Of a DNA stretch of 64,000 nucleotides, positions 3-49,745 are shown piece after piece. The stretch is from Bilabrum cf. latius. Taxonomy: Eukaryota. Numbering within the stretch: position 1 is the stretch's first letter; each line of letters starts with the position of its first letter. The stretch is taken from assembly GCA_965178125.1 (NCBI GenBank), contig OZ237745.1, positions 248,001 to 312,000 of the forward strand, written 5' to 3'. The position numbers and the translations under genes are program-made. The notes below the pieces were generated by a model. The model had not been told where the DNA came from and made no database searches. It saw only the letters and a program-made list of their open reading frames with translations.

Positions 3-3000
3 GCGAGACGGGGCGGGGGTAGTCGTGCTGGCGGTGGGCAGCTCACGCAGCACGGGTACGATACCAGCTAGAAAGAGAAGGGGCAAACTCAAAAACTTCA
101 TGACATCCACGGCCAGCCCGCTTCCTTCTCGTCCTACCTCGACCGGACCGACGAGGACGAGGACAGGGACATGGACAGCCGGACTGGTGTGAGGCCTCCG
201 ACCCTCCCCCCTCGTCAAGGCCTTCTTCCAGGCTACCTGCACTAGCGCTCGGGTACCGCTGCTGCTGATATTGGTGTGACTAGTGCGGTTTCTGGCACGG
301 ATGTACCATCGAATTCTAGCAGTGCCAGTGCTATTGCAACTAGCAGAGCTGCGACCTTGCGTGACCCCATGCGAGGCAGCCTGCACGGGCACGGTCGGCT
401 TGCCCAGCAGGCATGGGGTGCTGCAGCTCGAGCTATAGGCCCAGTGCACGCGGCAGGCGGATTCTCGTTGTCGATCTAGCCTGCTGTGGACAGCAGTGAG
501 GCACGACAGCAGCCGCCAGTGCCTTAGTTTAGTTCTTTCCTCGGAGGCCGTGGAGCACTGCGGCAGAGCCATGACGGAGGTCGTGGTCTCGCCATTCTCA
601 GAGGCGGGTCCAAATTGCATCCACACGGCAAGAATGTGCCAGCGAGTGCGCGCCACTCCGGTCGTGAGCGAAACGCTGTCCCAGTGCCGAAGCCAGACAG
701 CGATCACGATCGGTCGGCCAGGCGGCGAAGGTCGATGCCACAGGCAGCCGAGCTTGCCGCCCTGCTCCGACAAGCCGAGGAGCAGGACCTCATCCAGTCC
801 ATGATCGAGGGCGAAATGCCATCGTTTGCTGCAAGCGACGCCAGCGGTCGCATCGCAACCAGTAGGCATGGTAAGCAGCGAAAGTCTCTCGGGGGTACTC
901 ATGGTCGTGCTGGACATGGGCCAAGCATGGTCGTGCTGGATGAGGCACTGCTGTCAGTATCCATGCAAGCCCCAGCTTTGCCCGATGAGATGCAAAACGA
1001 GGCCAACAGTGAAAACCATGATCAATAGGCTGATAGCTAGAACACGACAAGAGGCCAACGCGTTGTGCCCGGTGGATCGCGCTCCCGCAAGAAGCCAGCT
1101 CAATCAACGCAGCCCATCGGCAGGCAGCTGCCTTGGGAGGGGCAACAAGTACGACCGCAAGCAAGACCCAGCAGAAGCTCATCTGTCGATTCTAGCCAAA
1201 GACGATAGTCTGGACGATCGCTGGCAGCACCGGAGTATCACCCCGCGAAGAAGCGCAAGGAGCTGTAGCGCATTAGCTTTCTGGACACATCTCGACTCAC
1301 CGTTGGCTCGTATAGCCGGCAGTAGCCCGCTGGTGACTAGAATGGAAGCCGTTTCCTTGATGTTCAGAGTCACGCTCATGCAGAAACAGCTGAGCTTCGC
1401 AATACTTCTGGCGGACTAATTCATGATCGTGGGAGCACGGTCGGTTTAGGCCAGTAGCTTCGATCTGACCCCAGCAGCGCAGACTAGGCACCAAACGAAG
1501 CTGTATCGCAGGCAAAAGAGGGGGCAAGGCAAAGAAAACTACCATCAAGTGATGTATCACCTCCCAGTGACGAATCGGCGGCTTTGACGGACTCTGCAGG
1601 CCCTGCTCATCCGAGTGAGCCGGGGCGTGCGAGCCATGCACAGCCCGGGCCGCAACCGACGCGACCATCCGCGACCAATAGGCATACATTTGCAAGAGCC
1701 AGCCCCGCAGCTGCCATCCAGGCCCTTGCTACCATGCAGCCTCGAGCAGCTGATATGCCTCGTGGGACCATTGACCTGCAAGAGTGGTGGCGGGTGGGCT
1801 TAGATGGCACAGGCAGGCTGGCCATGCCGCCGGTGGAGCAAAGGTTTGACGAGCCGACGGCCGAGGCCATTGAAGTAGCAATAGAGGAAGCGCACGAATC
1901 GAATTCTAGCATCGGCAACCATTCCGGTGGCAGGAGCAGCAGTCGAGAAGACCATCGCCAGCTTTCGGCGGCCAGGCGGATGGGCGCACATCTCCAACGC
2001 GGGTCTTTCAGGGGCAGCTTGACACGTTCAGGTCCAATATCGCGGCAATCCACGCTGTACGAGCTTGTATTTCCCCAGAGGCAGTTGGGAGAGTCTTTTC
2101 GGAGGTAGTATGCCAAGCGGCCTGACGTGCTTGGCCGGGCAGGCATTCGCACGAAACCAGCCCGAGCTCCGCAGGCACGGATGTTAAAGCATGCACCTGG
2201 TGTTGTTGAGAATCAAGACGAGTACAGTCCGGACAGCAGTAGGCGGGTCAAGTCTAGTCGCTAGGGAAAAGTCCTGCAGGGTATCTCTAGTAGCAATGGC
2301 AGGGATGGTGGTGATGCAGAAGACGATGTCGATTCCAGCTTGCTCGATGTGAGCGACAGCGAGGGACAGCGGGGCCCAAGTCCGGCAGACAGCGGGGTGT
2401 CGCGACCGTTGTTACCCGCATAGCGGGAGATCCGTCCAGCGGGACGAGCGAGCGACGATGTTGCTGCTTGTGGGGGCTTGGCAGGCGTCGATGACAGCTT
2501 CTTCTCGGACGATGGCGATCAAGGCAGCCGGCAGCATCAGAAGCAGCAAGCTCTGCAAGCGCCACAAACGGGCGCCATGCAGCGCCCACGTCCTTCGAGC
2601 AACCAAGACGGGGATTCTAAATCCTCCATTGCCTAGAATACTGCTCCCGGCTCCCCTAAGCGGGGCAGTAGGCTGGCAGCCATGGAGCGTGCCAAGGCCC
2701 TTGTGGAGCGGCTGGACAGGGCAAGGGCCGAGAGGAAGATCCACGGAGAGCCACTGGTACGGAGGACCGAATCAGCGCACGAGTCCACGGTTGGACACCA
2801 TCCCGGGGCAGCGCAGCCCACCGGCAGGCTTCCTCCCAACAAACGGCCCAAGCTCAAGCCGTTGAAGCAACGGAAGGCAGGCAGCTCGCGAACGGCGAAA
2901 TCTGGGAGGCGAGGCTTGCGCAGCGGGTTGCAGACAAAGAGGCCCAGCCTGACTGCGACCAGCTCGGTCTCTGCCGTGGGCGCTCCCAGCGGCAAACAGA

Positions 3001-3500
3001 ACATCCTGGCCAAAGGTGACTTGAAGGGCAAGGCCAGGAGAGTGCCAACGGCCAAAAAGTAGGGTGTCCAGGGGCATGGGCATATGCGGAGCACCGGAAA
3101 GGCACGGGGTGGGGCCACAAAGCTGCGGTAGAGCTAGCGTGCCACTGGTACCGCGAGTACTGCTTCACCAAGCCTGGTGCGGTCTTCAGGTCACAGTCAA
3201 GGCCGTCGGAGCCGAGGCAGCGGAAGCCGCTTTGGGCGGCGAACTACAGCCAGTGCTCGACCGATAGGCAAGGGGAGAAATTCTTCCATGCCTCGCGATT
3301 TCCGGTCCCGGAAGCAGCGGCGAGTCGCAGCGGCGCGCGCTGGTTCTCGGGAAACGCTGCTAGCAGGGGCGAAAAAGCAGGACACGAGCGCTTTCTCCAG
3401 GCACGGTCTGGTTGCATTCGCTCGTGCGCCGATTCCAGGAGATAGGAAGCCCTGGGGATCTGTCGGGCAGGCCCTAGGGGAGCAGCCCAGGCGTGGGTGA
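3..3500 (+). CDS. Large low-complexity (S/G/A/R/Q-rich) hypothetical protein, 5'-partial, >1160 aa with TAG read as Gln
   Basis: Track ORFs 276..479, 615..1028, 1584..2108, 2682..3062 and 3177..3500 share one frame. Manual translation of the gaps shows about 19 TAG codons and no TAA/TGA until TGA 3498-3500. No recognisable domain. Confidence 0.75.
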
Positions 3501-34410: not shown

Positions 34411-37400
34411 TCACCCACGCGTCTTTTTGCCTCGTTTCTTCACCACTCGCCGCACCGGCTTCTATCCCCCACCACCGTCAAGCTGGGCACTTCCCCCTGC
34501 CACCGCACTTAATCCACCCGAGGTGCTGGAGCCTCTGAGCCCCGCTGTCCGCTGGGCGGGAGCGCTGGGATTTCTGTCCCCAGCGGCCACGTAGCTGCCC
34601 TTGCTGCTGCCACCGTCGTCTCCTCTCCAGGCTGACTTGACCAGGCTGGGCGTAGGCGCCGCGGTACCTGGTACTGCGCTGCTGCTCCTGCCATGTTCCA
34701 CGCTTGCTGCCCGCAGTTCAATCGATGCATCCTGCGTGCTGCCAGGGATTGAGTGTAGGTCAGACGGAGGTGTCGCCGCGTGCATGCCGGCTGCGGGACT
34801 GCCGGGGTCCGCTGCCGCATGATTTTTACGGCCAGTGCGATGTGAAGACCCGTCAGTCTCCGGGTAAAGCTGCTAGTCGACTGTCTTCCACACGTTGAAC
34901 GGGGAGTCGACAGACGCCCGCCCCCGCTGGAGAGCACCCCACCTTTGCTCTTCCTATCTCACTGAGGCGATTGTGTCACCATTGCGCAGATCAGCAAGCT
35001 TCTGGGCCAGCTGCTTCTGTGAGTATGGCTTGGGCAGAATGCCGTAGAAGCCAGCCTCCCTGTACTCTGGCAGATTCCATGGGTCGTGGTTGGCCGTCAT
35101 GGCGAAGATGGGCACCCTGCATCCCAGCTCAAGGAGGTGCTTGCACACGTCCGTGCCCCTGGAATGTACCATCACGATATCCATCAGGATTGCATCGAAA
35201 CGAGGACCAGTCGGCTCAGGAAGAGAGCTGGCTTTAGAACCGGCTCCTGCCGCGGCGCGCTTCCGCGGGCTGGACTTGGATGGAATGTGACCCCTGCCCT
35301 TCAGCAACGCTTCGCACTGCTGCCCGTCCTCAAGCTCCTACGAAGTCGCACCCAGCCGCTGCAGCATACGGGTAGCCATGCGGCGGAGGGCCCGCTCGTC
35401 GTCTACCACGAGCACATGCATGCCATTCAGCGGTCCAGAGGCGCCACGCGTGTGCAGGCTTTGCCCAGCGTTGGCTTCAGAGGAAGAAAAAGCCGATGTC
35501 TGCACCGGCTCTGGCCTGGTGATGCCAGACAGGCCAGACCGTGCATTGTTGCCTGACGTCTCTGCGCTGGCGCCCCTGCTTGTTCTCTGGACCTTTTGAT
35601 CGCCGGAAGCTGGACCGCTACCTTGGAGGCCTGCAGCAAAAGCCATCTCCAAAGCACGCAGCTGTGCTTTTCTTGAAGTAGCTGTCATTTGTACAGCCGC
35701 GCCTGAAACTGCTGCACCGCCTGCTTGTTGAGATGCTACCGGCTCCTCTTGAACCAGAGCGCCTCTTACGGGTGGCAGTACCAGTTTGCTACCCCCACCT
35801 TCCGGTGCGTCAGTCCCGCGTGCACCCATGTCATCAAGTATTTCTGCAACACCCGGAGCCCCATCTTTCGGAAGTTGGCCCTGCTGGTGATGATCGGTGC
35901 TGTGGCCTGATGCGAGTGCTCCTTCGAGCATCGAGCCAGGATGGGCTCCAGCCGATTCCTGATTGCCTTCGCCTGATGCCATCTGTCTCCTGTCACTGGA
36001 CAGCGACGCGATTGCGGCTTGGTCGAGCGAGGGCCGCCCCCGCAAGAGGTCTGCTTGCCGGCCCATCTGCATGCGTCGAGTCCATCGCCCGCTGGTTGTG
36101 CTTCCGGAGCGGCCGCGCCCGCTGCCACTCATACTACTTAGGCCGGATGCGGGATTTGCGTCGTGACCATCAATTGGGTTACTGTCGCCTTCAATGGCTA
36201 CCTTGAGACCTGACGTTGGTCGTGCAGCGACTGGTCTACTCGCTGCTCGCCGGATGCTGTGGTCGAATTGCCCAGACAACGATCTCAAATGCACGAGCAG
36301 GGCACGAAGCTAATTCCTGGCTAGCCTTACGAGCGCTTCCAGCAGGTGATTTGGTCCAGTGGACGATCGTGAACTGCCATCCTCCTTCGCTTCGTTGTCC
36401 ATGGCTCGGTTGATCACGTCTAGCGCAGCCAGCACCAGGCGCTCTCGTCTGCTATACCTCAGCTCGGCCCGTGACCTCCACTCACTTCTCTTTGGTAATT
36501 GTGCGCCAGTAACCTCACTGCCTGTCAATTTTTCCTTGCTGCTGCCTCCAGACTGAGTCGTACTGGATCCCTTTCCCTTGGTCGCAGCGGGCTGGTCAAT
36601 TCTATCCTAAGCTTCTTGCGAGCCAGAACCTTGCCCAGACAACGCATGCGTGCCGACTGCAGACCCACCCTGAGATCCCTTGGCATCGTTGTTAGCAATA
36701 CTCGACGAGCCGTCAATCTTGCCGAGGCCAGAGTCGGTGAAGCTCCTGAAGTCCTCGCTCCTGCACTGACTCGTGCCCCCGATGGCGCTCCTCCAGTGGC
36801 CTTGCGATCCCCTTCGTCGTAAGTCTCCATGCCTGGAATTGTCAGCGGCGAGGATACCCTCTTCGGATGACGTGCGGCGAACAAGTGCCTTGCCTTGCAT
36901 GCCTGCCGCAGCCGAGTCGTCCCCGCACACAACTGTGGCCGAGCACTCTGCCAGTGCGCCGTCCGGATCGTCTTGTGCTAGCTTGGCGCGTGCCCGCTCA
37001 ATCGCCTGCATCTCCACCTGCAGTCGCTGCTCCCACATGTCAGTCGCCTCCCTTGGCAGCTTGCTCACCGCCCCTGCCTCCATCCTTCGGACCACGCGCC
37101 ACGGGGGCCGCAGCGGCAGTGCCACCTCCAGCACGGTCCTCTTTTTCCTCTTCTCCGTCCTCAGACCGATGGTCCCGCCCATCTGCTTGGTCAGCTCTTC
37201 CGCCATGGCCAGCCCCAGGCCAGAACCTTTCTGCTTGGCAACTGAGCTGGCGCTTCCGTCGGGAGCAGTTGGCTTGAACATGGCTGCTTCGGATGCATGG
37301 CTGGTCAAGGAAGCATACGATCCCACAGAATCACCCTCAATGGCAACCTCGGCACCAGCTCCACCAGCACCACCCGTCTCACCCGGCGTAGATGCCTCCT

Positions 37401-40400
37401 AGCTGCTAGGTACCCCTGCAGCCTGCTTGTCAGCAGCCTCCTTGGCTGACGTCTCGCCCGTGACAAAGGCACCGAAGTATCCGCTCTTCCCATGCTTGTC
37501 ATCGTCCCCGCCAAGGCCTTTACCTGTGTCGATCACCCTGAACACGAGCATTGGAAGCACATAGGACACTTCAACCTTGGTACTGCTTACAGATGCATGT
37601 TTAGCGCCGGCTCGGGCATGCCCCCCTGGTCTTGCGGCCCGATCATCGGAGTCAGGATCGTCCATGGACTCAGATGTGGCAGCGCGAGAGAGCCGCGAAG
37701 TCATCTCTGACTCGAGCTCCAACCCGAGGCCCCTTGCTTGAGTGTCCGCTGGACGCTTGTGGGAGCTTTGCGAGCTGATGGCAGCACTACCGAGGGTCGG
37801 CGGGCCACTCAAAAGGAGCCCAGGTGGTAGTACCCTATCCACCGCGCTAGGCACAGCAGCCATTGCTGCTGCGGATGCACCCCCCCGAGGCGCGATAGAT
37901 GCTTCCTAACAGAACCTACGGGTGTTCCGCAAAACATGGCCACCGAGAGCATTCGGTTTCTTGGCGCGAGCTCGCTCAATGGCTGCCAACAAGCGCTCGC
38001 CTGCATCCCGGGAGCCGTTGCACAGCTCGACGCAGGACTCCAGCTGTTCCTAGCGGTCAGAGCTCCTGGACTGCTGCAGCCGGTACGCACCGCTCTGCTG
38101 GCCTCGCACAGTGCTGGAAGCGCAGCATACTCGAGCTGCTGAAGAGTCCGAATCAGGCGCTCCAGGCTTGCTTATGCCGAGCGCCCACTACGTTTGGTCG
38201 CCATCAACTGCTTGGAACTACTTGCTCTGTTCCGCGTCTCCAGTACCGGACTCGCTGCCTGCAGCGCCTCCGTCTTGGCTCTTCACCCACTGCAGCATCT
38301 TGCTCTCACCGATGGCAGCCAGTGATGGCATCGATGCCATGCCAAGGGATCCTTGCGACTGGTCCTTTCCAACATCATCATAATACATGCGGGCCCACCT
38401 GCTGGACCTGATTTCCTCCTCAACGATCTGCTTGCTGACTGGCCTCAGCCTCACCTGAAGGTCCACCATGATGTACCCCTTCTTGCAGAACTTTGCCGCG
38501 TTTGTCAGGCCGTTGGCGAGAATCTGCGTAATCCTCAGCTCGTCTGCGATCACCACGGGTGGCACAGAGGCAGACACGTGGAACCGAAGAGGCACTTCTG
38601 CGAACGACTGGTGGCTGGAGGCCACTGCCACGATCAACCTCCGGGGGTCCATGGGCGCGGGTGCGATGGGCAGCTTGCCCTGATGCAGCCTGCTGAGGTC
38701 GAGCAGGTCGTTCACCAGCCGATGTAGGGTCTCTGTGCCCTGGTGGATGACGTCCATATCGCCACCACCCGCCTGGATCTGGCCGTGGGCCTGGCCCACC
38801 AGCTGTCTCGCGTGCTGCAGCTGCTGCCCCCCCGCATCCAACTTCCTCTTGGCTGACCCAAGGTCCCGCAGAGCCTTGGCCTGCTGCTCCAGCCGCTTGC
38901 CACCTCGGCTCAACGATCCAGCTGCGGCCGGAGCTTCGCTTGAGTCCAGCTCATCTGACGTGTCGTCCATCTGCGCCGCCGCCAAGAGCCGCTCAGCCGC
39001 CCTCTAACACTGCGCAGCCACCGTCTTATTCTCGACTAGTGCGCTGTCAAGCACGGCCAGAGCCTGTTCGGTGGCCTCCCCCGCGCCTGCCGAGGCCTCT
39101 TTCAGCATGCCCAGGCTGCCGCTGCACAGGTGCAGGGGATTGCGCTGCTCGTGCACCACGAAAGACACGAGGATCTGGTGGGCCTTTTTGGCTGCTTCGA
39201 ATCGAGCCTTCTGCTCCGATCTTTCCCTGTGGTCACGCAGCTGCTGCGCCCTGGACTGAACGAACGCACCTGCCACGAGCATTGTGATGGCGATAGATAC
39301 AAGGATTCCTGCCAGGAGCGGCGCCACGATTGCAGAGTCTCCCTAGTTTGAATAGAACTGATCGGTGATCGCCACGTGGACGGACCACACCCGGTTGCCC
39401 ACCGGGACGAGGTATCCCAGCACCTCTCGCGTGCTCCTCGAGGCGCGGGCCTTAATATAGCTAAGGACCCGCTCCTGAGCCTCGTCGGAGGCCGGGTCAT
39501 CCACCTGATTGACGTCATTGATGGCGTACTGGAACTGACCCAGCCCAGCAGGGACGTCGTGGCGAGGCACCGCATCTGTGCCGACGGAAAACAGGTCAAA
39601 GAGAGGCGAAGTGGCCAGTCGCTAGAATCCAGGAGTTGCTACAGCATAGGCGTACTCATCGTACTCGGTCTCGATTTGTCCGCTGAGCCCGCCGTCCCCG
39701 TCGCTCAGCCTCTCCTCCGCTTCCCGCACCAAGTCGGTCACGTCCTCACTGTAGATGGCCACTGGGGAATCCACGTCGCGCACCAGCTCTGCTTCGTTGG
39801 AGATCGCAGCAAAGAAGAAAACAGCTACTGCGTGCCCCCTCATGATGTGCCCGTTCACGCACCTGCTGCTGCACGGCTCCAGGGGGTGCTCCCTCCTGCC
39901 CTCTTGCACGTCGATGAGGCTCTGGTTGTAGGCAGCCAGCGCGTCTTCTGCAGAAGTGAAGGGCAGGCACACGGCCCTGAAGGCCTCTCCGCAAGCATCG
40001 GTCGAGTTGTGGGTGTACTGCTCCTGCTGCACCACCCTCTAGTCCCCGGTGATGCGGTTGATGCCGGGCGCGATGTCTCCGGCGAGGGCGCCCACGTCGA
40101 TGCCGTCCGCTAGCATCTGCAGCCGGCCTTCGCCCTGCATACCCAAGGAAGAATATACGGGCGCGGCGACAAGGACACCCCTTGCCAGGCCAGTCCTTGA
40201 AACTAGCCGCAGAGGGCCTGTCGTTGCGAACTAATTTAGCCGTGCGGCTGCCTCCATAGCTTGAAGTCTGGGCACGTTTGTGGCCAGGTCCAGGCCAATC
40301 ACGTTTGCCGTTGAACCGTTAAAATCACCGACCATGGTGAGGGGTAAGGCTCGGCGGGCAGCCAGTGCAGTTTGGTTCGCGGCTGCGAGAGGTTCCAGGC

Positions 40401-40881
40401 CGCGACTCCCTATGCCGCGAAGCTCAGTGAAACGGAACCTCGCGCTGTCTGAGTATTCCTCGCTAAGTATTGCTGCTAAAGCATCCATGTGCACTCTGTC
40501 GACCTCTTTGGCAAACCCTACGCCAGAAACAGTTCCAATGTTGCTGCGCGTGACGCGGTCCGCCACGGCTTCGCTGCCCTCTAGGCGCACTCCAAAAGCC
40601 ACGTTCGAGGCAGATGACCCGGACAATGAGACCCGCAGTGCATCTATTTCTGGCAAATGGCTATAAAATGCCTGGACTTGCGCATTCACTCTGAGCTAAG
40701 CCCTCGCTTCAAATGTAGTTAGCACCCGGTCTTGCCTGTTTTCGTACGAAGAAAACGTAATCGCTCCGGTAACCAACAAACAAAGTATAGCAACAACACA
40801 AAGCCACCACACTGGGTGCAACCCGAGCACTGTTGCTACTGGTGGTTCGTCAACGATGCGTTTACCGCTGCCGTCAGTCAT
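34411..40881 (-). CDS. Membrane hybrid histidine kinase 2 (paralog of 7542..14102): TM-CHASE-TM-HisKA-HATPase-receiver, ~2156 aa
   Basis: One frame from ATG 40881 to TGA 34413-34411 through TAGs. Same H-box (FVVHEQRNPLH), N-box, VIDTGKGL, GSGLGLA and receiver motifs; collinear with copy 1 from N- to C-terminus. Confidence 0.9.
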
Positions 40882-41144
40882 GTCGACTGAAACTAGCCGG
40901 GTGAGATACTTCTGGCGAAATGAAGCAGGGAATCAAAAGTGGTAAAAGAGGAGACTATTCGTGGTGCAAACGGTGGCTTCGTCCCGCCGATTTGATCACA
41001 GATTGTGTACGAAATTGCTGTTGCTTTGCGGAGGTCGTTTTGCGACCAAAAACACACGGACTGACCGTCGCCAAATTGCGCAATACGCGCCGGGATCGGG
41101 CGGTGGAAGACAATTCAGACAAATGCAAAACAGCGATAATGAGC

Positions 41145-43313
41145 TCAAGTCTCCATCGCAGCTGCACCGCCGCTGCCTGCCGTGGCATCCGCCTTACTGC
41201 CAGCACCACCAGTCGCTGCCGCACCTTCAGCGGGCGGGTCCGTAGAAAACGGCTTGCTAGGGCGAATCGGGTGCATCCTCACGTACTTGTCGACGTCGAA
41301 CTTCCTCCTCGCGCCATCTAAAGTCATGGGCCGGATCTTGCCGGTCACAGCGGTCTCCTTGAATCCCATGTCGTGCACTCCCATGATCGCCCAGCCGACG
41401 CCGACGAACCCGTTCGGGTCCCGGCCGTCGATCGAGTACCTATCGTTGAGCCGTTGCGCGATCCGAAGCGCGTCCGCGGGCGTTTTGGTCCACTCGAGGA
41501 TCTTCTTGGCCCAGTACATGCGGCACCACCCGTGCATCTTCCCGTCGTGCACCATCTCGCTCTGCGCGGCATTCCACAGAGGGTCGTGCGTCCTTGCGCG
41601 CTCCAATTCCTCCTCACTGTACACTCTCCCCCTCGCGTCCCCCGTATGTTCCGCAAGGGTCTGCCTGGCCCATTGCGCGGCGCCCTCAAGGCTATCGTAC
41701 TAGGGATTGTACAAGCAGAAATTGTCGCTGATCTCGCGCCGGACGAGCACTTGCTCGGCGAACGACTGAGCAGACGTGCTCGCCTTCTTCACGAACAGGC
41801 CCTAAATGTCCGTCTCCGTGATGCGCATCAGCTCGAGGAGCACCCGCTGCGCCGAAATCTGCCCGAAGTGGATGTAGGGGCTGAGTCCGGAGAGCGCGTC
41901 GGGCTTGGTTGGATTCCTGCTGCTCTCTGCGTACCTGAGATAGGGTCGAGACAAGTACCGAGCAAGCGTCTCTTCGGCTGCTCGTTCCCCTGGCCTCGCA
42001 AAGGACACCTCCGGCACGCTCCAGTCGATCTGCAGCGAGGCCGCCACCTGCACCCAGTCGATCCAGCGGCCCTCATCGTCGAGCTGCGCCACGCAGGGAA
42101 CAGCGTCCCCGTCAAAGTCGCTCGAGGCCCGCCCGAACACGCCTTCCGCCACGTCTCCACTCCCTCCTTCTGCCGCTGCCGCTCCACCTGTCGCCGCCCC
42201 GCTGTCGGCAGCCCCTGCCCCAGCCCCAGCCCCAGTCCCCGCGGCCTCTCCCCCGGCACCCTCCATATTCTTCTTCCCCACTGGCATGGACCCATCGCGC
42301 TACGCCGCCCACGACTTCCCGAGGATCTCCGAGTCGTCCACCGCACTCGTCATCTTGATGAGCTGCGGGAATGCAGTGAGGTAGCCGTCAAGCCAAGAGT
42401 GCACCCTGGGCCTGAACGTCCTGGCGCCCACCTCCTGGCGGTCGGATGCCACCCAGGCTGGCACCACGTTGTGCGCGTCCACCTCGACTACCGCGGTCTC
42501 CTTGGGCACGCGCTGGCACACCTGCCGCTTCCAGTCCAGCCCCACCCGCAGCGGGCTGAAATCGGCAACGATGGTGCTTGCGCCGACGGCGCGGGCATAC
42601 CTGGGCAGCTGCTCCGTGGGGTTCCCCAGGAGGACTCGGAATGATATTCCCAGTGCGTGCAGGTCCTGCTCCACGTACCTCAGGCCGCGCAGCATGAAAC
42701 CGTACTGCCGCGCGGTGGCCTGCAGAAACTTCGGCACGAGGCAGAACACGACCACTAGCGTGGTCTTCTTCCGCATTGCCTGCGACTACGCGTGAACCAG
42801 CGCCCAGTTGTCCCTCACCCTCTGGTCTCGAGACATCCACAGGATCACAGGCCCTTTCGCATCCTTGGATCCCGGCTTCAGCCGTCGCCTCCGGCCCTTC
42901 TCCATGGATACGCTCTCGTCATAGTCCCATTCAACGCTATCATATATTCCATTGATACTTATTGGAGCGCGAAGACGCCGCAGCAATCGGGTGTACGGGT
43001 GCTCGTTGGGGTCGCCCGCCGACGCTTCAACAACAGCGGCATGGCGCGAGTTTACGGCGGCAATTCGCTTCAGCGACTGGTCGTGCCACAGCCTGAGTAA
43101 ACTAGCGCATGCCGATTTAACATCGCTCTGCTTTGAAGCCCGCATGAGCCGTCCGACCACGACGCCTGCTCGGCTTCGCTTCAGGGCCGAGACCGTGACT
43201 GGAACGTACTGCAAGCTTTCCAATACCTACTGCACCATACCAGCGTCATCACGAGCAAGTGACCGTTTCAAGTGCGCCAAATGAATCTTCAACGATGACA
43301 AGGGCGTTGTCAT
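41145..43313 (-). CDS. PHR: Class II CPD photolyase with an N-terminal TFIIS-N-like domain, ~722 aa
   Basis: One frame from ATG 43313 to TGA 41147-41145 with five TAGs. [95 protein letters not shown]. Confidence 0.95.
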
Positions 43314-43594
43314 GGCAGACAAAATGGGCCCCCGAGCTTCATGCGGATTATACCTTTAACAACTCCTTACAATGTGGCCGAACGAAAAAGTCACCGAATT
43401 CCGCTCACCAATAGGGCTACACGTGTACAAGCTGCTGCCCACTACCTTGCGTTGATCCTAAATACTCCTGGAATCCATACGTTTGTGTTGGGCCACTAGG
43501 TGCGAACCCAAATCTTGGCTAGTGCGACCGCCGCGGATCGGTTTAGGCAGCATCACCATTGGCCGGTCACCAGAACGCCAGCAAGAGCACACTA

Positions 43595-46500
43595 ATGTCA
43601 TCTAGAGCATCTAGCATATCGTCGGGCAGGGATATTGCTGTTCAGGCAGACGACGTCGAAATTCCTGCCATCTGGGTCAAAACAAAACTCCCAGACGATG
43701 AGGGTGGGCATGAGTACTTTTACCACGCACAGACGCGGGAATGCAGCTATAGCCCACCCCCAGAAGGAGAGAAAGTTTGCACGCAGGAAGAGTTCGACGC
43801 CCTCGTTGACGGAGATGCAGAGGGAGACGAGGACGAAGCTGATGAGATTGTCCTTACTCGAGATACCATCGATGACTGGAAGTTCATAACAGATGAAGAC
43901 GGCGATTCGTTTTGGTACAATAGTAAAACCAACAAGTCCATGTGGGACAACCCGCACGAACTATTGGCGAGGTAGCTGGGAGACGCTCCGCCGGCAGACA
44001 CATCCGCAGGTGCCACCCAGACCGTGAAAGCATTGCAAGACGAAGTGCAGTGAGTCTATGTCGCTTGTTCGCTACGATCCGAAGAGATGCGCAGAGTCAT
44101 CAAATGCTTGCGGGCGAATGGTTTGAGCAGTTGATGCAAGGACTGTAGGATGTGTCTTGACGCTGCAAGTCCGCCGCTGCAAGCGTAAACCAGATCAAGT
44201 TTTCCCGTATCGCTTCGTGCAACTCCGGAGTCAATCTCGCAGGCAGCTCAAGAAGCAGCTCGAAGACGCGAAGGCTCAGCTGAAATCGTCAGAGGAACGC
44301 CGCATCGCTGCCGAGGAGCGGGCAGACCGGCTCGAGGCTGAACTGAAGGACGTGCGAACGAAGAGTCCCGTCGGTAAGAGACCACCAAAGTAGAAACCAG
44401 CTACTAGTAGCAGCGGGGACTCGTCGCCGCGGTCGGGTGGATCCCCGACTTCGCAAGGAAGCAAACGAGCCGGAAACGCACTAGGAGGCAGCAGCGGCAG
44501 CGTGATCGCTACAAGCAGCAAGCAGCCGCCGGGGAAGGACGATATGTCGCCTTCCGCGTTTTCCAAGGGAGCTCCATCCTCCGCAAAGGCCGGCAAACCG
44601 TCTGCTGGCCGCGCGCCGCGGGCGCCGAGCGGCCAGCTGTCGACCGGATCCGTGGCTCCAGACCTGCTCCCCCGAGCCCGCAAGACGCAGAGCTTCCGAA
44701 GACGCTCCGACATATTCGACCTCAACGGCGAGGCGGACGGCATCGTCAGGCGCAGAGCCCGGTCGACGGACTCGTCACACGGCGGCAGGTCCGCTTCAGG
44801 AAGCGCCCAGGCATTGGCCCTGGGAGCGGTGGCGGCGGGCTCCTCTTCAGGGGAGGAAGACTCGGATGATGAGGAGCTGGTCGCGGGAAGCGGGGGCGGT
44901 TTCCCCAGCGCAAGTGCCCAGTACGAGGACGAGAAGGAGGACCCCAGGCGGGGAGACGCCGGACCCGTGGGCGACGTCACCGGGGAGCAGCTCTCATTCG
45001 TCAAGAGCGTACCGCTGTTCCACTCCTTGACCGAGGCGCAGATCGGGGTCCTGCTCAGGAGGCTGAGGAGGGCGCGATTCGCGGCAGGTGACGCGATCAT
45101 CAAGCAAGACAGCGTCGGGGCGAGGTTCTTTGTGATTGCCAGCGGGCGCGTGTCGGTGCACAAGAGCAGTGGAGTGCCGCCCGCCGAGCAGGTCAGGCGC
45201 TTCCGCTTGGCGCAAAAGGAGGACGGCGATGGGGAGGGCACCCAAAGCCCGGAGGCAGCCAAAGCCGGTGGAGGTCTCAAGAAGTCCAGCAGCTTCGGTG
45301 CATTGACCGGCGGGGGGGCAGTGGAACGTCTGGCGGCGGACCTTGCAGGGGGGAGGCCTAAGCCAGGGCACGTGCTGCTGGGGTCCTCGGCGCGTCAGCT
45401 GGGCTCTGGCATGGACGGTCAGGGGCGCGGGGGCGCCACGGGTGGCGTGGACATGCTGCGAGAGCTGGCCAAGCAGGTGGAGGGTCCCGAGGCCAGCTCT
45501 GAGGTGCTGTGGGGGCCCCAGGTGGCCGAGCTCTCCAAGGGATTCTTCTTCGGCGAGCAGAGCCTGATGACCAATGAGCCGAGGTCGGCAACCTGCGTCG
45601 CGGCAGTGGACACGGTCTGCTTCACTCTCGACAGGGAGGGCTTTTCGGATGTCCTGTCGGACGTGCAGGACCTGCTGGGCAAGTCGTCCAAGGAACACAA
45701 CACGGCGGAGACGCCAGAGGCGCTCGCTCTGGCCAAGCATGTCAATACGTACGCAGTGCTGCTTGCGGCAGCTCGGAGAGAGATCGTGGCGGGGGGCGCC
45801 TCGAAGGAGGCTGTGGCTCGATCCTCGGCGGAAGGGGGGGGAGACCTGGACGAGCTGGCCGGAGAGCCTGCCTTGGAGTGCAGGGTGGAGAACGACGCCC
45901 TCATGCCGGCGAGTCGCGCCCTCGTGGAGTCTATGACTGTGTTTGCTCCCGAGCACGGGGCGATCGACATGCTGCAGCGGTGCACGAGGGTGCTGTCCGG
46001 TCTGCTGAACGTGGAGCACTGCAGCCTCTTCATCTACGACGAGGACTCGCAGGAGGTTCTGGTGCACGGTGGATTCGAGTCGCAGGTTCGAGACCCGGAG
46101 AGGCGCGGAGCACTGAGCGACGAGGACGAATTCGAGCAGAGGATCAAGGAGCACCACAGCAGCACGGGGAGGAGGACGAGCCTCACAGGCAGGGGAACCG
46201 TGCTGACGCGCGTGCCGGCCCGGCAGGCCGGCCCCGTGGGATACGTTGCCGCTCGTAGGGAGACGGTCGTCGTGCCCGCCACGGAGTTTGACCTGCGGTT
46301 CCAGAGCCCCGGGGCGGGTGCTGCGGCTGGGGACGGGGGGGAGGCCACCGAGGAGGGCGGGCTCGAGGCGGCTGCAGCGGCCAGCAGCACGCCCGGCGTG
46401 GCCTGGCACGAGCTGGCCTCATCCTCCGCCCAGGAGCTGGGTTGGGACATGACGTACCAGAACCTCGCCAGGCGAGCTGTGGCGGGCGGGCTGCGCGCCG

Positions 46501-49500
46501 GTGGTGGCGTTGGCAACTCTGGGGATGGAGGCGACGATGACGACGCTGAGTGGATGGCCGGTCCAGGCGGTAGTGGTGAGGATGGCGACGACGGCGAATT
46601 CGAGCTGGATAGCATCGCTCTATGTCCGCTCATCGATTCATTTGGGAAGGTCATGGGCGTGCTCGCTGCAGCCAATAAAGGGAAGGGCTGCATGGGCGAG
46701 ACGGGCAGCGACCAGCAGCCCATCGCTGCGGCTGCCGCCGCGGCCGCGGCCGCCGCCGCAGCCCATGCAGCCGCGCAAGGCCGTGGCAAGCGGCCCTCCG
46801 CGAAGAAGGGCGCGCGACGGCTCTCGGCCATGCGATCCTACAACATGTTCGGCGGTGATGAGGACTCTACGCTGGAATCGAAGAGTGATGCGGGTGGCGG
46901 CCGCCGCCGGGCGTCCTCGTCTGTGAGCGGTCGCTCCCGCAGCGTGTCGGGCACGGTGCGTGCACTGACCGTGTCCCTGGACCACATCACCGCGCGTGAT
47001 GAGCTGGTGATCGAGGGTGTCGCCGAGGCCCTCGCCCTGGCACTCGAGCAGCGCAGCACGGAGTTCTCCGCCCTCTTGGGCGCCTCGCACACGGTACCTC
47101 TGCACACCCTCAGCAGCCAGTTCAGGGTGCAGCTTATGGGCGCGAGGGGCTTGCCTCCCAGCAAGGGCTGTACCATCTCCAAGTCCACCAAGCGCGCGAA
47201 GCGGGTGCCGTCCGGGTCCAAGGTACACGTCGAGGTTAGCCTGTTTCACGGTGGGAAGAGCCTGTGCCCTGGCAAGTCGGCCGACCCCGCTCCTCTCGTG
47301 CTCACGACTCGCGAGGACAAGATGAACACGCTGTCTTGCTCGTGGGCGTAGCACGTCTCTATGGACATCCGGTACTGCAATCTCCCAGCCGCCACAAGGT
47401 GCGTGTTCAACGTGAAGCACAGCACGGATGAGCCAGCGGGGTGGGCCGGCCTCTCCCTGTTCGACTTTCAGCAGGTCATGCGCTGCGGTGAGATCGAGCT
47501 GAAGCTTTGGCCCGGAGCAGCGGACGCTCACCTGGCGGCCACGACCACGAGCCTCAGCAACGACCTCGACGACAGCGCACCCGTCCTCATCGTCGGGCTG
47601 CATCGGTTCCGCGCACCCGTAGCTCGCGTTGCCGTGCCGCAGGGGTTCCTGCAGGCGGCAACGCGAGCTGCCGCCGCCAAGCAGCCTGGTCTCGCCGCGG
47701 CGCTCAAGGCGCACGCCGGCACGACCGAAGGTGGGATTTCTGCCGTTTCGGGAAGCGGTGGGGCGGGCGCTGCCGGCGGGGCTGGCGATGGAAGCGATGG
47801 CTCGTCGGGCGGTCGCGGCAGCGTGGTCGGTGCTACCGTTAAGGGTCCACGGGTGCGCAAGACAGCAAGCAGGGCAAGCGGGATTGGGTCCGCGGGCAAG
47901 TCTGCTGCGCCCGAGCCTCCGGACGTTGGACGGATCGTCACGTCGCCCGCGTGGTTTGACGATGCCTGGGCAGCACCCCTGCTGCTGTCCCGCGCGACCA
48001 AAGGCGAGTACTCCGAGTTGAGGGACAGGCTGGCCCACGTCGCCAAATCGGACCCTCTGTACGAGCTCAGCCCCGAGGAGGTGGACATCGTGTGGCGCTG
48101 CAGGCAGCACATTACCAGCGAGCCCAAGCTGCTTCCCAAGTTCCTGCTCGCCGTCAACTGGGCCTCCGGAGCCGCGGTGGCGGAGGCATACCACCTCCTC
48201 GATCAGTGGAGCCCGCCCTCACCCCTGCAGGCACTGCAGCTTCTAGACAGCCACTTCCCAGACCCCAGGGTCCGTGCCTACGCCGTGGAGAGGCTGGAGG
48301 AGATGGACGAGTCGGAGCTTGGGCAGTACCTGCTGCAGCTGTCGCAAGTGCTCAAGTATGAGCTCTTCACCGACTCGGCTCTCGCCCGCTTCCTCCTTCG
48401 CCGATCGCTGAGGCACCCTCGCGTGATCGGTCACCAGCTCTTCTGGCTCCTCAAGGGCGAGATGCATATCTCGGAGGTTGCTCCTCGCTATGGCGTCTTC
48501 CTAGAACAGTACCTGCGGAGCTGCGGGTCCCACCGCACGGAGCTGGGCCACCAGATGTTTGTCATGGCCAAACTGGAGCAGACCGCCATGCAGGTCAAGG
48601 CGGTGTCGGGTGGCAAAGAAGCGAGGAAGCGGTGCATCAAGGAGAGCCTTCCCCGCATCGTGTTCCCTGATCGCTTCCAGCTGCCTCTGTCTCCTCACAT
48701 GGTAGCCAAGGGGTTGCTTGTGGACAAGTGCCGCGTGATGAGCAGCAAGAAGCTGCCGCTGTGGCTCACCTTCGTGGCAGCGGATCCGGCCGATTCTTAG
48801 CCCGGAGGATCGGCCGGGGCGTCGGCTCCAGCAGCGAAGGCTTCCTCCGATGGCGGCTCTGCTTCCTCTGGTGCCGGCGCTGGGGGCGATATGGTAGCAG
48901 CGAAGAAGCCACACGAGACGCTCAGCGTTCTGTTCAAAGCAGGCGACGACCTGCGGCAGGACCAGCTTACTCTGCAGGTGCTCAAGGTAATGGACAAGCT
49001 GTGGAAGAAGGAGGGCCTGAATCTGAACATGAATGCCTACGGCTGCGTCAGCACGGGCGACGAGATCGGCATGCTGGAGATCGTGCTGGATTCGGCCACA
49101 CTCGCCGGTATCCTGCAGGAGAGTCTAGGCGAGGGCAGCGGCATTTTCCATAAGCTGTCTGCCGCCATGACTGCGTACCAGGACGACGTGATTCGGACCT
49201 GGCTGGAGGCGCAGCGAGACAACAAGTCTAACTGGGCGCAGGTGCAGGAGACTTTTTTGCTGTCGCTCGCTGGGTACTGCGTAGCAACGTATGTGCTGGG
49301 GATTGGCGACAGGCACAACGACAACATCATGATCCGGAGGGACGGGGCATTTTTCCACATCGACTTTGGCCATTTCCTGGGCAACTTCAAGAAGAAGTTT
49401 GGGTACAACCGGGAGAAGGCTCCCTTCATCTTCACCCCGGCACTCGCGCGCGTGCTGGACGGCACTGATTCCGCTACGTACAGGCGCTTCGAGGCGGTCT

Positions 49501-49745
49501 GCTGCAGGGCGTACAACGTGCTGCGGAAGCATTCGAACCTCATCATCACCCTGTTTTTCCTCATGGTGAACTGCGGGATCCCTGAACTACGGAGGCCCCA
49601 GGACATGAAGTGGCTGCAGGACAAGCTGATGCCCGACCAGAGCGATGAATTCGCTTCGGAACACTTTAAGGAGCAGCTCAAGATTGCAGTAAGCACGCGA
49701 GCTACTCAGCTGAATGACGCGGCACATCTGTTTGCCCACGCTTGA
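43595..49745 (+). CDS. Phosphoinositide 3-kinase (class I/II-like core) with N-terminal WW x2, coiled coil, cNMP-binding and GAF domains; exons 43595-44049 and 44243-49745; ~1985 aa
   Basis: WW motifs W...EYFYHAQTRECSYSPP and W...SFWYNSKTNKSMWDNP. cNMP: VPLFHSL, IIKQDSVGARFFVIASGRV, FFGEQSL...PRSATC. GAF: CSLFIYD, VGYVA, CPLIDSFGKVMGVLAAANK. C2; helical domain LQLLDSHFPDPRVRAYAV; kinase FKAGDDLRQD, LGIGDRHNDN, HIDFGHFLG. Ends at TGA. Confidence 0.9.
44050..44242 (+). other. Spliceosomal intron of the PI3K gene (193 nt)
   Basis: GTGAGT...CTCGCAG; removal gives a continuous coiled coil ALQDEVQQLKKQLEDAK. Confidence 0.8.

Follow-up and report, generated by a model that had tools for sequence, protein, structure and literature searches.

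A class II CPD photolyase with an N-terminal TFIIS-like domain in Bilabrum cf. latius, and a possible link between light-driven repair and transcription

Can a photolyase, an enzyme that reverts cyclobutane pyrimidine dimers (CPDs) with light, be wired to the transcription machinery? The question is raised by a locus in a 64,000-nucleotide stretch of the protist Bilabrum cf. latius (contig OZ237745.1, positions 248,001 to 312,000; hereafter the window, in whose numbering all coordinates are given unless another sequence is named). An earlier note, made from the letters alone, had read the segment 43086-43313 as a domain resembling the N-terminal domain of TFIIS (TND), fused to a CPD photolyase, and had proposed that the fusion could tether the enzyme to elongation complexes of RNA polymerase II (Pol II). 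We find that the locus is almost certainly one expressed, intronless class II CPD photolyase gene with an N-terminal TND, and that this architecture is real with the same near-certainty; the best explanation overall, that such a TND-photolyase is tethered to the elongation machinery, is one to which we give even chances.

The peptide quoted in that note, which named no strand, is encoded on the minus strand (43313..43086) and makes up codons 1-76 of a 722-codon frame that contains five in-frame TAGs (codons 29, 176, 338, 504 and 538), no TAA and no TGA; the features of the gene are collected in Table 1. The peptide had been said to run into the photolyase in frame and with no intron needed: the single frame stands, as does the lack of an intron in the RNA-derived contigs described below, provided that TAG is read as a sense codon, a proviso that the claim had left out. 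A metagenome contig that is 72-80% identical (L001) carries the orthologue, again in one frame (its positions 1188-3386), with the start methionine aligned in the two sequences and similarity beginning there, with none upstream. TAG-29 and TAG-176 recur in L001, TAG-338 and TAG-538 correspond to CAG there, and L001 has a TAG of its own for the nearly invariant Q of the RDQR motif, which the window encodes as CAG; two more TAG positions pair with GAG between window and L001. The column of codon 176 holds Q in 18 of 27 aligned homologues, and all five TAGs are unaltered in the RNA-derived contigs. Long TGA-free frames across the window contain many, evenly spread TAGs and few TAAs, which either lie close to the start of a frame or belong to a single cluster; the photolyase coding sequence of L001 terminates at TAA. 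From these codon patterns we conclude that TAG most likely encodes glutamine, with TAA and TGA as stops, in a code that would resemble NCBI table 15 rather than table 6. Since TAA is apparently a stop, the TAA at 43358..43356 closes the frame above the ATG at 43313. No tRNA genes and no Rfam matches are found in the 64,000-nt window, which therefore offers no tRNA-Gln(CUA).

The likeness of the first ~76 codons to a TND, as the earlier note had seen it, goes far beyond chance. The Pfam profile of the Med26/TFIIS helical bundle (PF08711, gathering cut-off 20.6 bits; PROSITE entry PS51319) matches residues 29-77 over profile positions 1-49 of 52, with 29.1 bits (E 9e-7) when the whole protein is scanned and 32.5 bits (E 7e-8) on residues 1-154 alone, so that the N-terminus does have the TND profile match on which that reading had been made to depend. 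A phmmer search of PDB sequences with residues 1-155, taken up to E 10, gives 14 matches, 13 of which are TNDs of PNUTS, TFIIS or MED26 (E 0.002-0.04; the best is 9ci7 at E 0.0019), the fourteenth being TetR at E 0.41. Because the window TND scores nearly equally with PNUTS (21.8 bits), TFIIS (20.9 bits) and MED26 (20.4 bits), its subfamily, and hence its partner, cannot be assigned.

Structural models point the same way. For window residues 1-155, AlphaFold2 with a four-sequence alignment predicts helices at 4-18, 21-36, 41-45, 48-59 and 63-97, at a mean predicted local distance difference test score (pLDDT) of just 52.7; the basic residues K45, R46, R48, R55, R58, K61 and K66 all lie within residues 41-97, modelled as helices 3 to 5. 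A 72% identical relative (P0145) begins just after TAG-29 and hence has no helix 1; its AlphaFold2 model reaches pLDDT 73-90 over residues 1-60. When this model is compared with the PDB by Foldseek, the ten best rows are all TND, LW or IBD domains (PNUTS, Iws1/Spn1, TFIIS, MED26, T. brucei LW, LEDGF), eight of them with a root-mean-square deviation of 0.8-1.2 Å over 46-52 columns, at E 0.25-0.5. The models thus support, though not decisively, a predicted five-helix TND fold for a domain of ~50 residues, by way of the relative P0145. The helix 1 run LK.HLAHL is also found in Cafeteria roenbergensis.

Comparison with L001 establishes that the whole N-terminal extension is coding and constrained, with purifying selection on the TND. 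Synonymous sites are saturated here (proportion of synonymous differences, pS, 0.84-0.99), and for TND and linker we compare pS with the proportion of nonsynonymous differences (pN). Codons 1-28, which precede the Pfam match, are identical in 18 of 28 residues, with pS 0.94 and pN 0.23, and the 80 codons of the TND are identical in 52, with pN 0.25 against pS 0.97. Motifs in the linker that follows are common to the window protein, Cafeteria, P0006, P0016 and P0008 in our alignments.

At least part of the stretch is present in 15 of 16 listed sequencing runs, none of them recorded as RNA, and four of these (X1, X5, X6, X7) were compared. X1 holds the whole 3.6 kb in one contig, including an intron (44050-44242) of the neighbouring plus-strand gene and the intergenic stretches; it is DNA, and may be the data from which the window itself was assembled. 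In X5, X6 and X7, which come from two studies, the contigs skip 44050-44242, bounded by GT..AG, and leave the intron uncovered; X5 is also uncovered at 40995-41113 and 43313-43419, and the corresponding gaps are wider in X6 and X7. Because the neighbour's intron and the intergenic DNA are absent from X5-X7 and both present in X1, we take X5-X7 to be RNA-derived. The TND codons are covered without a single difference by contigs of X5 (42281-43312), X6 (42921-43300) and X7 (42848-43223), and the X5 contig continues colinearly from the TND through the linker into the entire photolyase N-domain; the rest of the gene lies on a second X5 contig (41114-42203), and no intron interrupts it. The break between the two (42204-42280) is a Gly/Ala-coding repeat, and this gap in cover, like one in X6 at 42734-42920, reflects a repeat or low depth and carries no evidential weight. 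Transcripts that start downstream of the TND segment, which would have told against the fusion, are not what these contigs suggest, since they cover that segment, although contigs cannot show transcript ends. The X5 contig begins at 41114 and an X6 contig at 41069, which implies a 3' untranslated region of at least about 30-80 nt.

One might still suppose that two adjacent genes have been joined by reading through TAG, or that the TND profile match arose by chance. The frame does depend on five TAGs being read as an amino acid, and runs X5-X7 are not certified as RNA. However, one contig spans both domains, Cafeteria and seven further database proteins have the same fusion with no change to the standard code, the linker is conserved (57/75 residues against L001), TAG falls at photolyase columns with a conserved Q, and the Pfam score exceeds its cut-off. 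We regard such an artefact as extremely improbable, and of the four rival explanations weighed in this work it is the only one that the evidence excludes for practical purposes.

The photolyase to which the TND had been said to be fused is present in the same frame, with PF00875 matching residues 156-317 (E 5e-34), and is of class II. The whole protein matches the enzymes of rice (3UMV, E 1e-126) and Methanosarcina mazei (2XRY, E 6e-120); the six best PDB sequences are all class II (E 1e-126 to 1e-118), and class I enzymes, DASH proteins and cryptochromes match only at ~E 1e-7. Two trees, a FastTree of 119 rows and a quick IQ-TREE tree of 44 of these rows picked by hand, from which two very long arthropod models (P0002, P0004) were excluded, both place the window protein within the class II CPD photolyases. 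The motifs LWNAAQ, MYWAKK and ILEW, whose tryptophans we take to be the class II tryptophan triad, are intact in a 31-sequence alignment, and the window protein agrees with 26 full-length homologues at 141 of the 154 columns conserved at 85% or more. Against L001, the ratio of nonsynonymous to synonymous substitution rates (dN/dS) is 0.10 in the N-terminal and 0.09 in the helical photolyase domain.

The 13 departures at conserved columns are mostly conservative and include W651F, R654T and F657T, of which the first two fall in the motif HDxGWxER, whose tryptophan presumably lines the CPD pocket. Cafeteria shares W651F only, with R at 654 and S at 657, and L001 shares W651F and T657, with K at 654. 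Departures from such strongly conserved columns would suit a cryptochrome-like light sensor, in which transcription would respond to light through control of the TND by the flavin domain, repair having become secondary or having disappeared; some members of the photolyase/cryptochrome family do have dual functions. Against this, the protein groups inside the class II CPD photolyases, LWNAAQ, MYWAKK and ILEW are intact (their triad roles being our assumption), the dN/dS of the helical domain speaks of strong purifying selection, and the W651F change, common to Cafeteria and L001, retains an aromatic residue. We consider a light sensor of this kind very improbable.

How widespread is the fusion? 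The earlier note knew of no described photolyase with this architecture; the suggestion that it is undescribed is not borne out. Among the 120 best photolyase homologues, seven have PF08711 together with PF00875 in precomputed Pfam annotation, and our own scan confirmed all seven. The TND is N-terminal in P0006, P0016 and P0025; P0012 and P0021 carry it in the loop between the two photolyase domains, and P0065 and P0080 at the C-terminus. A hidden Markov model (HMM) built from 11 TNDs adds two Cafeteria models, for a total of nine of the 120; this HMM finds no TND in P0008 or P0143, models that apparently begin inside the domain. An Atlas cluster queried with P0016 is eukaryotic and has 105 members, all with PF00875 and 94% with PF08711, most often from Chlorophyta among the 20 members of known phylum. 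In print, one sentence gives Chaan_9990 of Chattonella antiqua, nested in CPD class II, a TFIIS domain at its N-terminal site, with no function proposed (Shikata et al. 2019, PMC6685483). A text search of the literature, in which matches to photolyase and TFIIS were judged mostly by titles and the openings of abstracts, found no proposed function for TND-photolyases. The TND-photolyase architecture, of which the window gene is a further member, is thus recorded but uncharacterised.

Searches with the N-terminus itself give a similar picture. A word-based search with residues 1-155 gives no match, and an exhaustive phmmer search of the N-terminus finds eight proteins at E 0.001 or below, four of which are the N-termini of TND-photolyases (P0145, P0068, P0147, P0148). 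Three others (P0146, P0149, P0151) are repetitive proteins that we take to be spurious, and P0150 (341 amino acids) has three tandem TND-like repeats by our HMM and lacks a photolyase domain. The Cafeteria protein matches the N-terminal ~150 residues at E 2e-10 with a single sequence and 9e-42 with a profile; the profile search, made among longer proteins, gives no other match.

In the trees, the window protein pairs with its relative P0003 and then joins a starred clade with P0008, Cafeteria, P0005, P0007, P0006 and P0016. P0025 falls among plant-type enzymes, the pair with an internal TND shares a starred clade with Prymnesium parvum P0057, and the proteins with a C-terminal TND form a separate pair in that same clade. 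Since the TND sits at different positions, N-terminal, internal and C-terminal, at least three fusion events are implied. In P0012 and P0021 the domain occupies residues about 225-306, in the loop that bears the Gly/Ala insert of the window protein, and in P0065 and P0080 it occupies the last 80 residues.

What could a TND do for a photolyase? According to a review of the domain, the TND is a non-catalytic five-helix scaffold that reads disordered TND-interacting motifs (TIMs) by means of a basic patch together with two hydrophobic pockets, and no other fold is as enriched among regulators of elongation (Cermakova et al., PMC9987994). In yeast, the transcribed strand is repaired poorly by photolyase, whose inhibition there is probably due to stalled Pol II hiding the dimer, and mutations accumulate on that strand (PMC12153352). 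In the mechanism that we propose, the TND would dock the photolyase onto TIM-bearing elongation factors, docking would concentrate the enzyme in transcribed chromatin or close to a Pol II that a dimer has stalled, and CPDs in active genes would be reverted by light and without excision, including those transcribed-strand lesions that an untethered photolyase repairs poorly. We put TND-directed photorepair of transcribed genes by this mechanism a little below an even chance. The tethering idea gains indirect weight from the independent fusions at three positions, taken together with the inhibition of photolyase on the transcribed strand. Transcription-coupled photoreactivation in the full sense, in which a TND-TIM contact would let the enzyme travel with the Pol II elongation complex or bring it there, dimers would be cleared from the transcribed strand and the solution would have been invented at least three times, is a proposal that we make tentatively and rather doubt.

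The TND might instead be a general handle for an acidic, phosphorylated and disordered partner, serving nuclear or chromatin retention, stability or regulation, with no specific link to Pol II elongation or to repair of the transcribed strand. The specificity of TNDs resides in poorly conserved surface residues and their partners vary widely (PMC9987994), and the near-equal scores of the window TND with PNUTS, TFIIS and MED26 allow no partner to be assigned. However, the characterised TND proteins named in that review all belong to the transcription machinery, and the repeated, independent fusion argues for a specific selective benefit; we think a generic handle unlikely, while granting it real weight.

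Recruitment could also run in the reverse direction, with the photolyase finding CPDs, also in the dark, and the TND bringing elongation or restart factors or marking the site for excision repair, in which case the protein would be both a sensor of damage and an adaptor. Lesion binding by photolyases needs no light, and these enzymes can promote excision repair. TNDs build higher-order complexes through TIMs (PMC9987994). The catalytic core is conserved at 141 of 154 columns, however, which implies that light-driven repair is maintained, and we hold this reverse recruitment to be improbable; nothing in the sequence separates it from the tethering of the photolyase to the elongation machinery.

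Several observations weigh against a tethered and fully active photolyase. The AlphaFold2 model of the window's own N-terminus is poor, as its mean pLDDT indicates, and Foldseek with the P0145 model finds nothing in the PDB at E 0.001, its best rows lying at E 0.25-0.5. Our HMM finds no TND in P0005 and P0144, which belong to the same clade as the window protein; some lineages, then, do without the domain. Full CPD-repair activity is assumed from sequence, and the 13 departures, W651F and R654T among them, leave some doubt about it. The RNA status of X5-X7 is something we infer, and the automatic labels read 'RNA?' and, for X5, 'probably DNA'. M137, a methionine inside the linker that is kept in L001, is a possible internal start, and an isoform without the TND could arise from it, the contigs being blind to transcript ends.

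The protein is best placed by comparison with systems that are known. The solved class II enzymes (rice 3UMV, M. mazei 2XRY) share with it the alpha/beta domain, the FAD-binding helical core and the three tryptophan motifs; they lack a TND, and to their plan the window protein adds an 80-residue TND, a 75-residue linker and a Gly/Ala loop of ~85 residues, while it has F in place of W at 651 and T in place of R at 654. Chattonella antiqua Chaan_9990, from a stramenopile, has the same N-terminal TFIIS-photolyase architecture by its description in PMC6685483. The nearest named relatives of the N-terminal part are Cafeteria roenbergensis FNF28_06702 and FNF29_06417 (P0068, P0067), which are like the window protein in the order TND, linker motifs, photolyase and in F at 651; unlike it, they are models of 1141 and 1192 residues, extended N-terminally by long acidic stretches that may be model errors, use the standard code and have a TND below Pfam detection. 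P0012/P0021 and P0065/P0080 combine the same two domains, the former with the TND in the loop and the latter with it at the C-terminus; both pairs belong to another starred clade and are independent fusions.

TFIIS, MED26, PNUTS/PPP1R10, IWS1, Elongin A and LEDGF have a homologous five-helix TND, but without an enzyme that acts on DNA, whereas the window TND is joined to a DNA repair enzyme. If the photolyase is indeed tethered to elongation complexes, transcription-coupled nucleotide excision repair (TC-NER; CSB, UVSSA, ELOF1, and bacterial Mfd) would be a functional analogue and nothing closer, in that repair is sent to lesions that block Pol II; the two have no sequence relation, and TC-NER excises and resynthesises, whereas the window enzyme would revert the dimer directly with light.

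Table 1. Features of the TND-photolyase locus (positions in the window)
Feature	Position	Strand	Remarks
Complete coding sequence, TND-linker-class II CPD photolyase, intronless	41148..43313	-	722 codons, single frame with TAG = Q
Stop codon TGA	41145..41147	-	
TND, residues 1-80	43074..43313	-	Pfam match, residues 29-77, at 43083-43229
Conserved linker, residues 81-155	42849..43073	-	includes class II R.R.LK.G motif; 57/75 identical to L001
Photolyase N-terminal alpha/beta domain, residues 156-317	42363..42848	-	PF00875 E 5e-34; rice 3UMV matches residues 140-319
Gly/Ala-rich low-complexity interdomain loop, residues 321-405	42099..42353	-	insertion relative to other photolyases
FAD-binding helical (catalytic) domain, residues 406-690	41244..42098	-	3UMV residues 209-477 match residues 408-679
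In-frame TAA, 15 codons 5' of ATG 43313	43356..43358	-	probably a true stop, closes the frame
In-frame TAG, codon 29, inside TND	43227..43229	-	second Q of 'VQQVLESL'
Other in-frame TAGs	42786-42788, 42300-42302, 41802-41804, 41700-41702	-	codons 176, 338, 504, 538
Residues 651 (F) and 654 (T), motif HDxGWxER	41359-41361, 41350-41352	-	homologues: W in 24/26, R in 26/26
Gap between divergent transcripts, ~106 nt, presumed shared promoter	43314..43419	.	X5 cover stops at 43312 and resumes at 43420; X1 continuous

The Gly/Ala-rich interdomain loop is identical to L001 in 39 of 76 residues. Upstream of the gene, an out-of-frame ATG at 43342 (minus strand) opens a 10-codon frame (43310-43342) whose TGA overlaps the main ATG (ATGA); it is relevant only if transcription begins 5' of 43342, and the RNA-derived contigs stop at 43312. 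The divergent neighbour on the plus strand (43559-44400) encodes a WW-domain protein, and its 193-nt GT..AG intron (44050-44242) is the one removed in the X5-X7 contigs. Also on the plus strand, 44127-49742 is provisionally read as a PI3-kinase (PI3K_C2, PIK and kinase domains) whose TGA-free frame also holds, upstream, a cyclic-nucleotide-binding domain and a weak GAF match. Such a fusion would be unusual, and the intron 44050-44242 lies just upstream. On the other side, a 2173-codon frame with 17 in-frame TAGs (34414-40932, minus strand) specifies a hybrid histidine kinase that has CHASE, HisKA, HATPase_c and receiver domains.

With TAG most likely read as glutamine, the locus is a clean example of this reassignment in a GC-rich, intron-poor protist genome. 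A CPD in the transcribed strand is a block to Pol II; in yeast no lesions are repaired less well by photolyase, and mutations are correspondingly in excess (PMC12153352). If the TND does direct photorepair to transcribed genes, direct reversal of damage would be coupled to transcription in some eukaryotes, as a second route to transcription-coupled repair, and protists and algae would possess a light-driven, excision-free counterpart of TC-NER.

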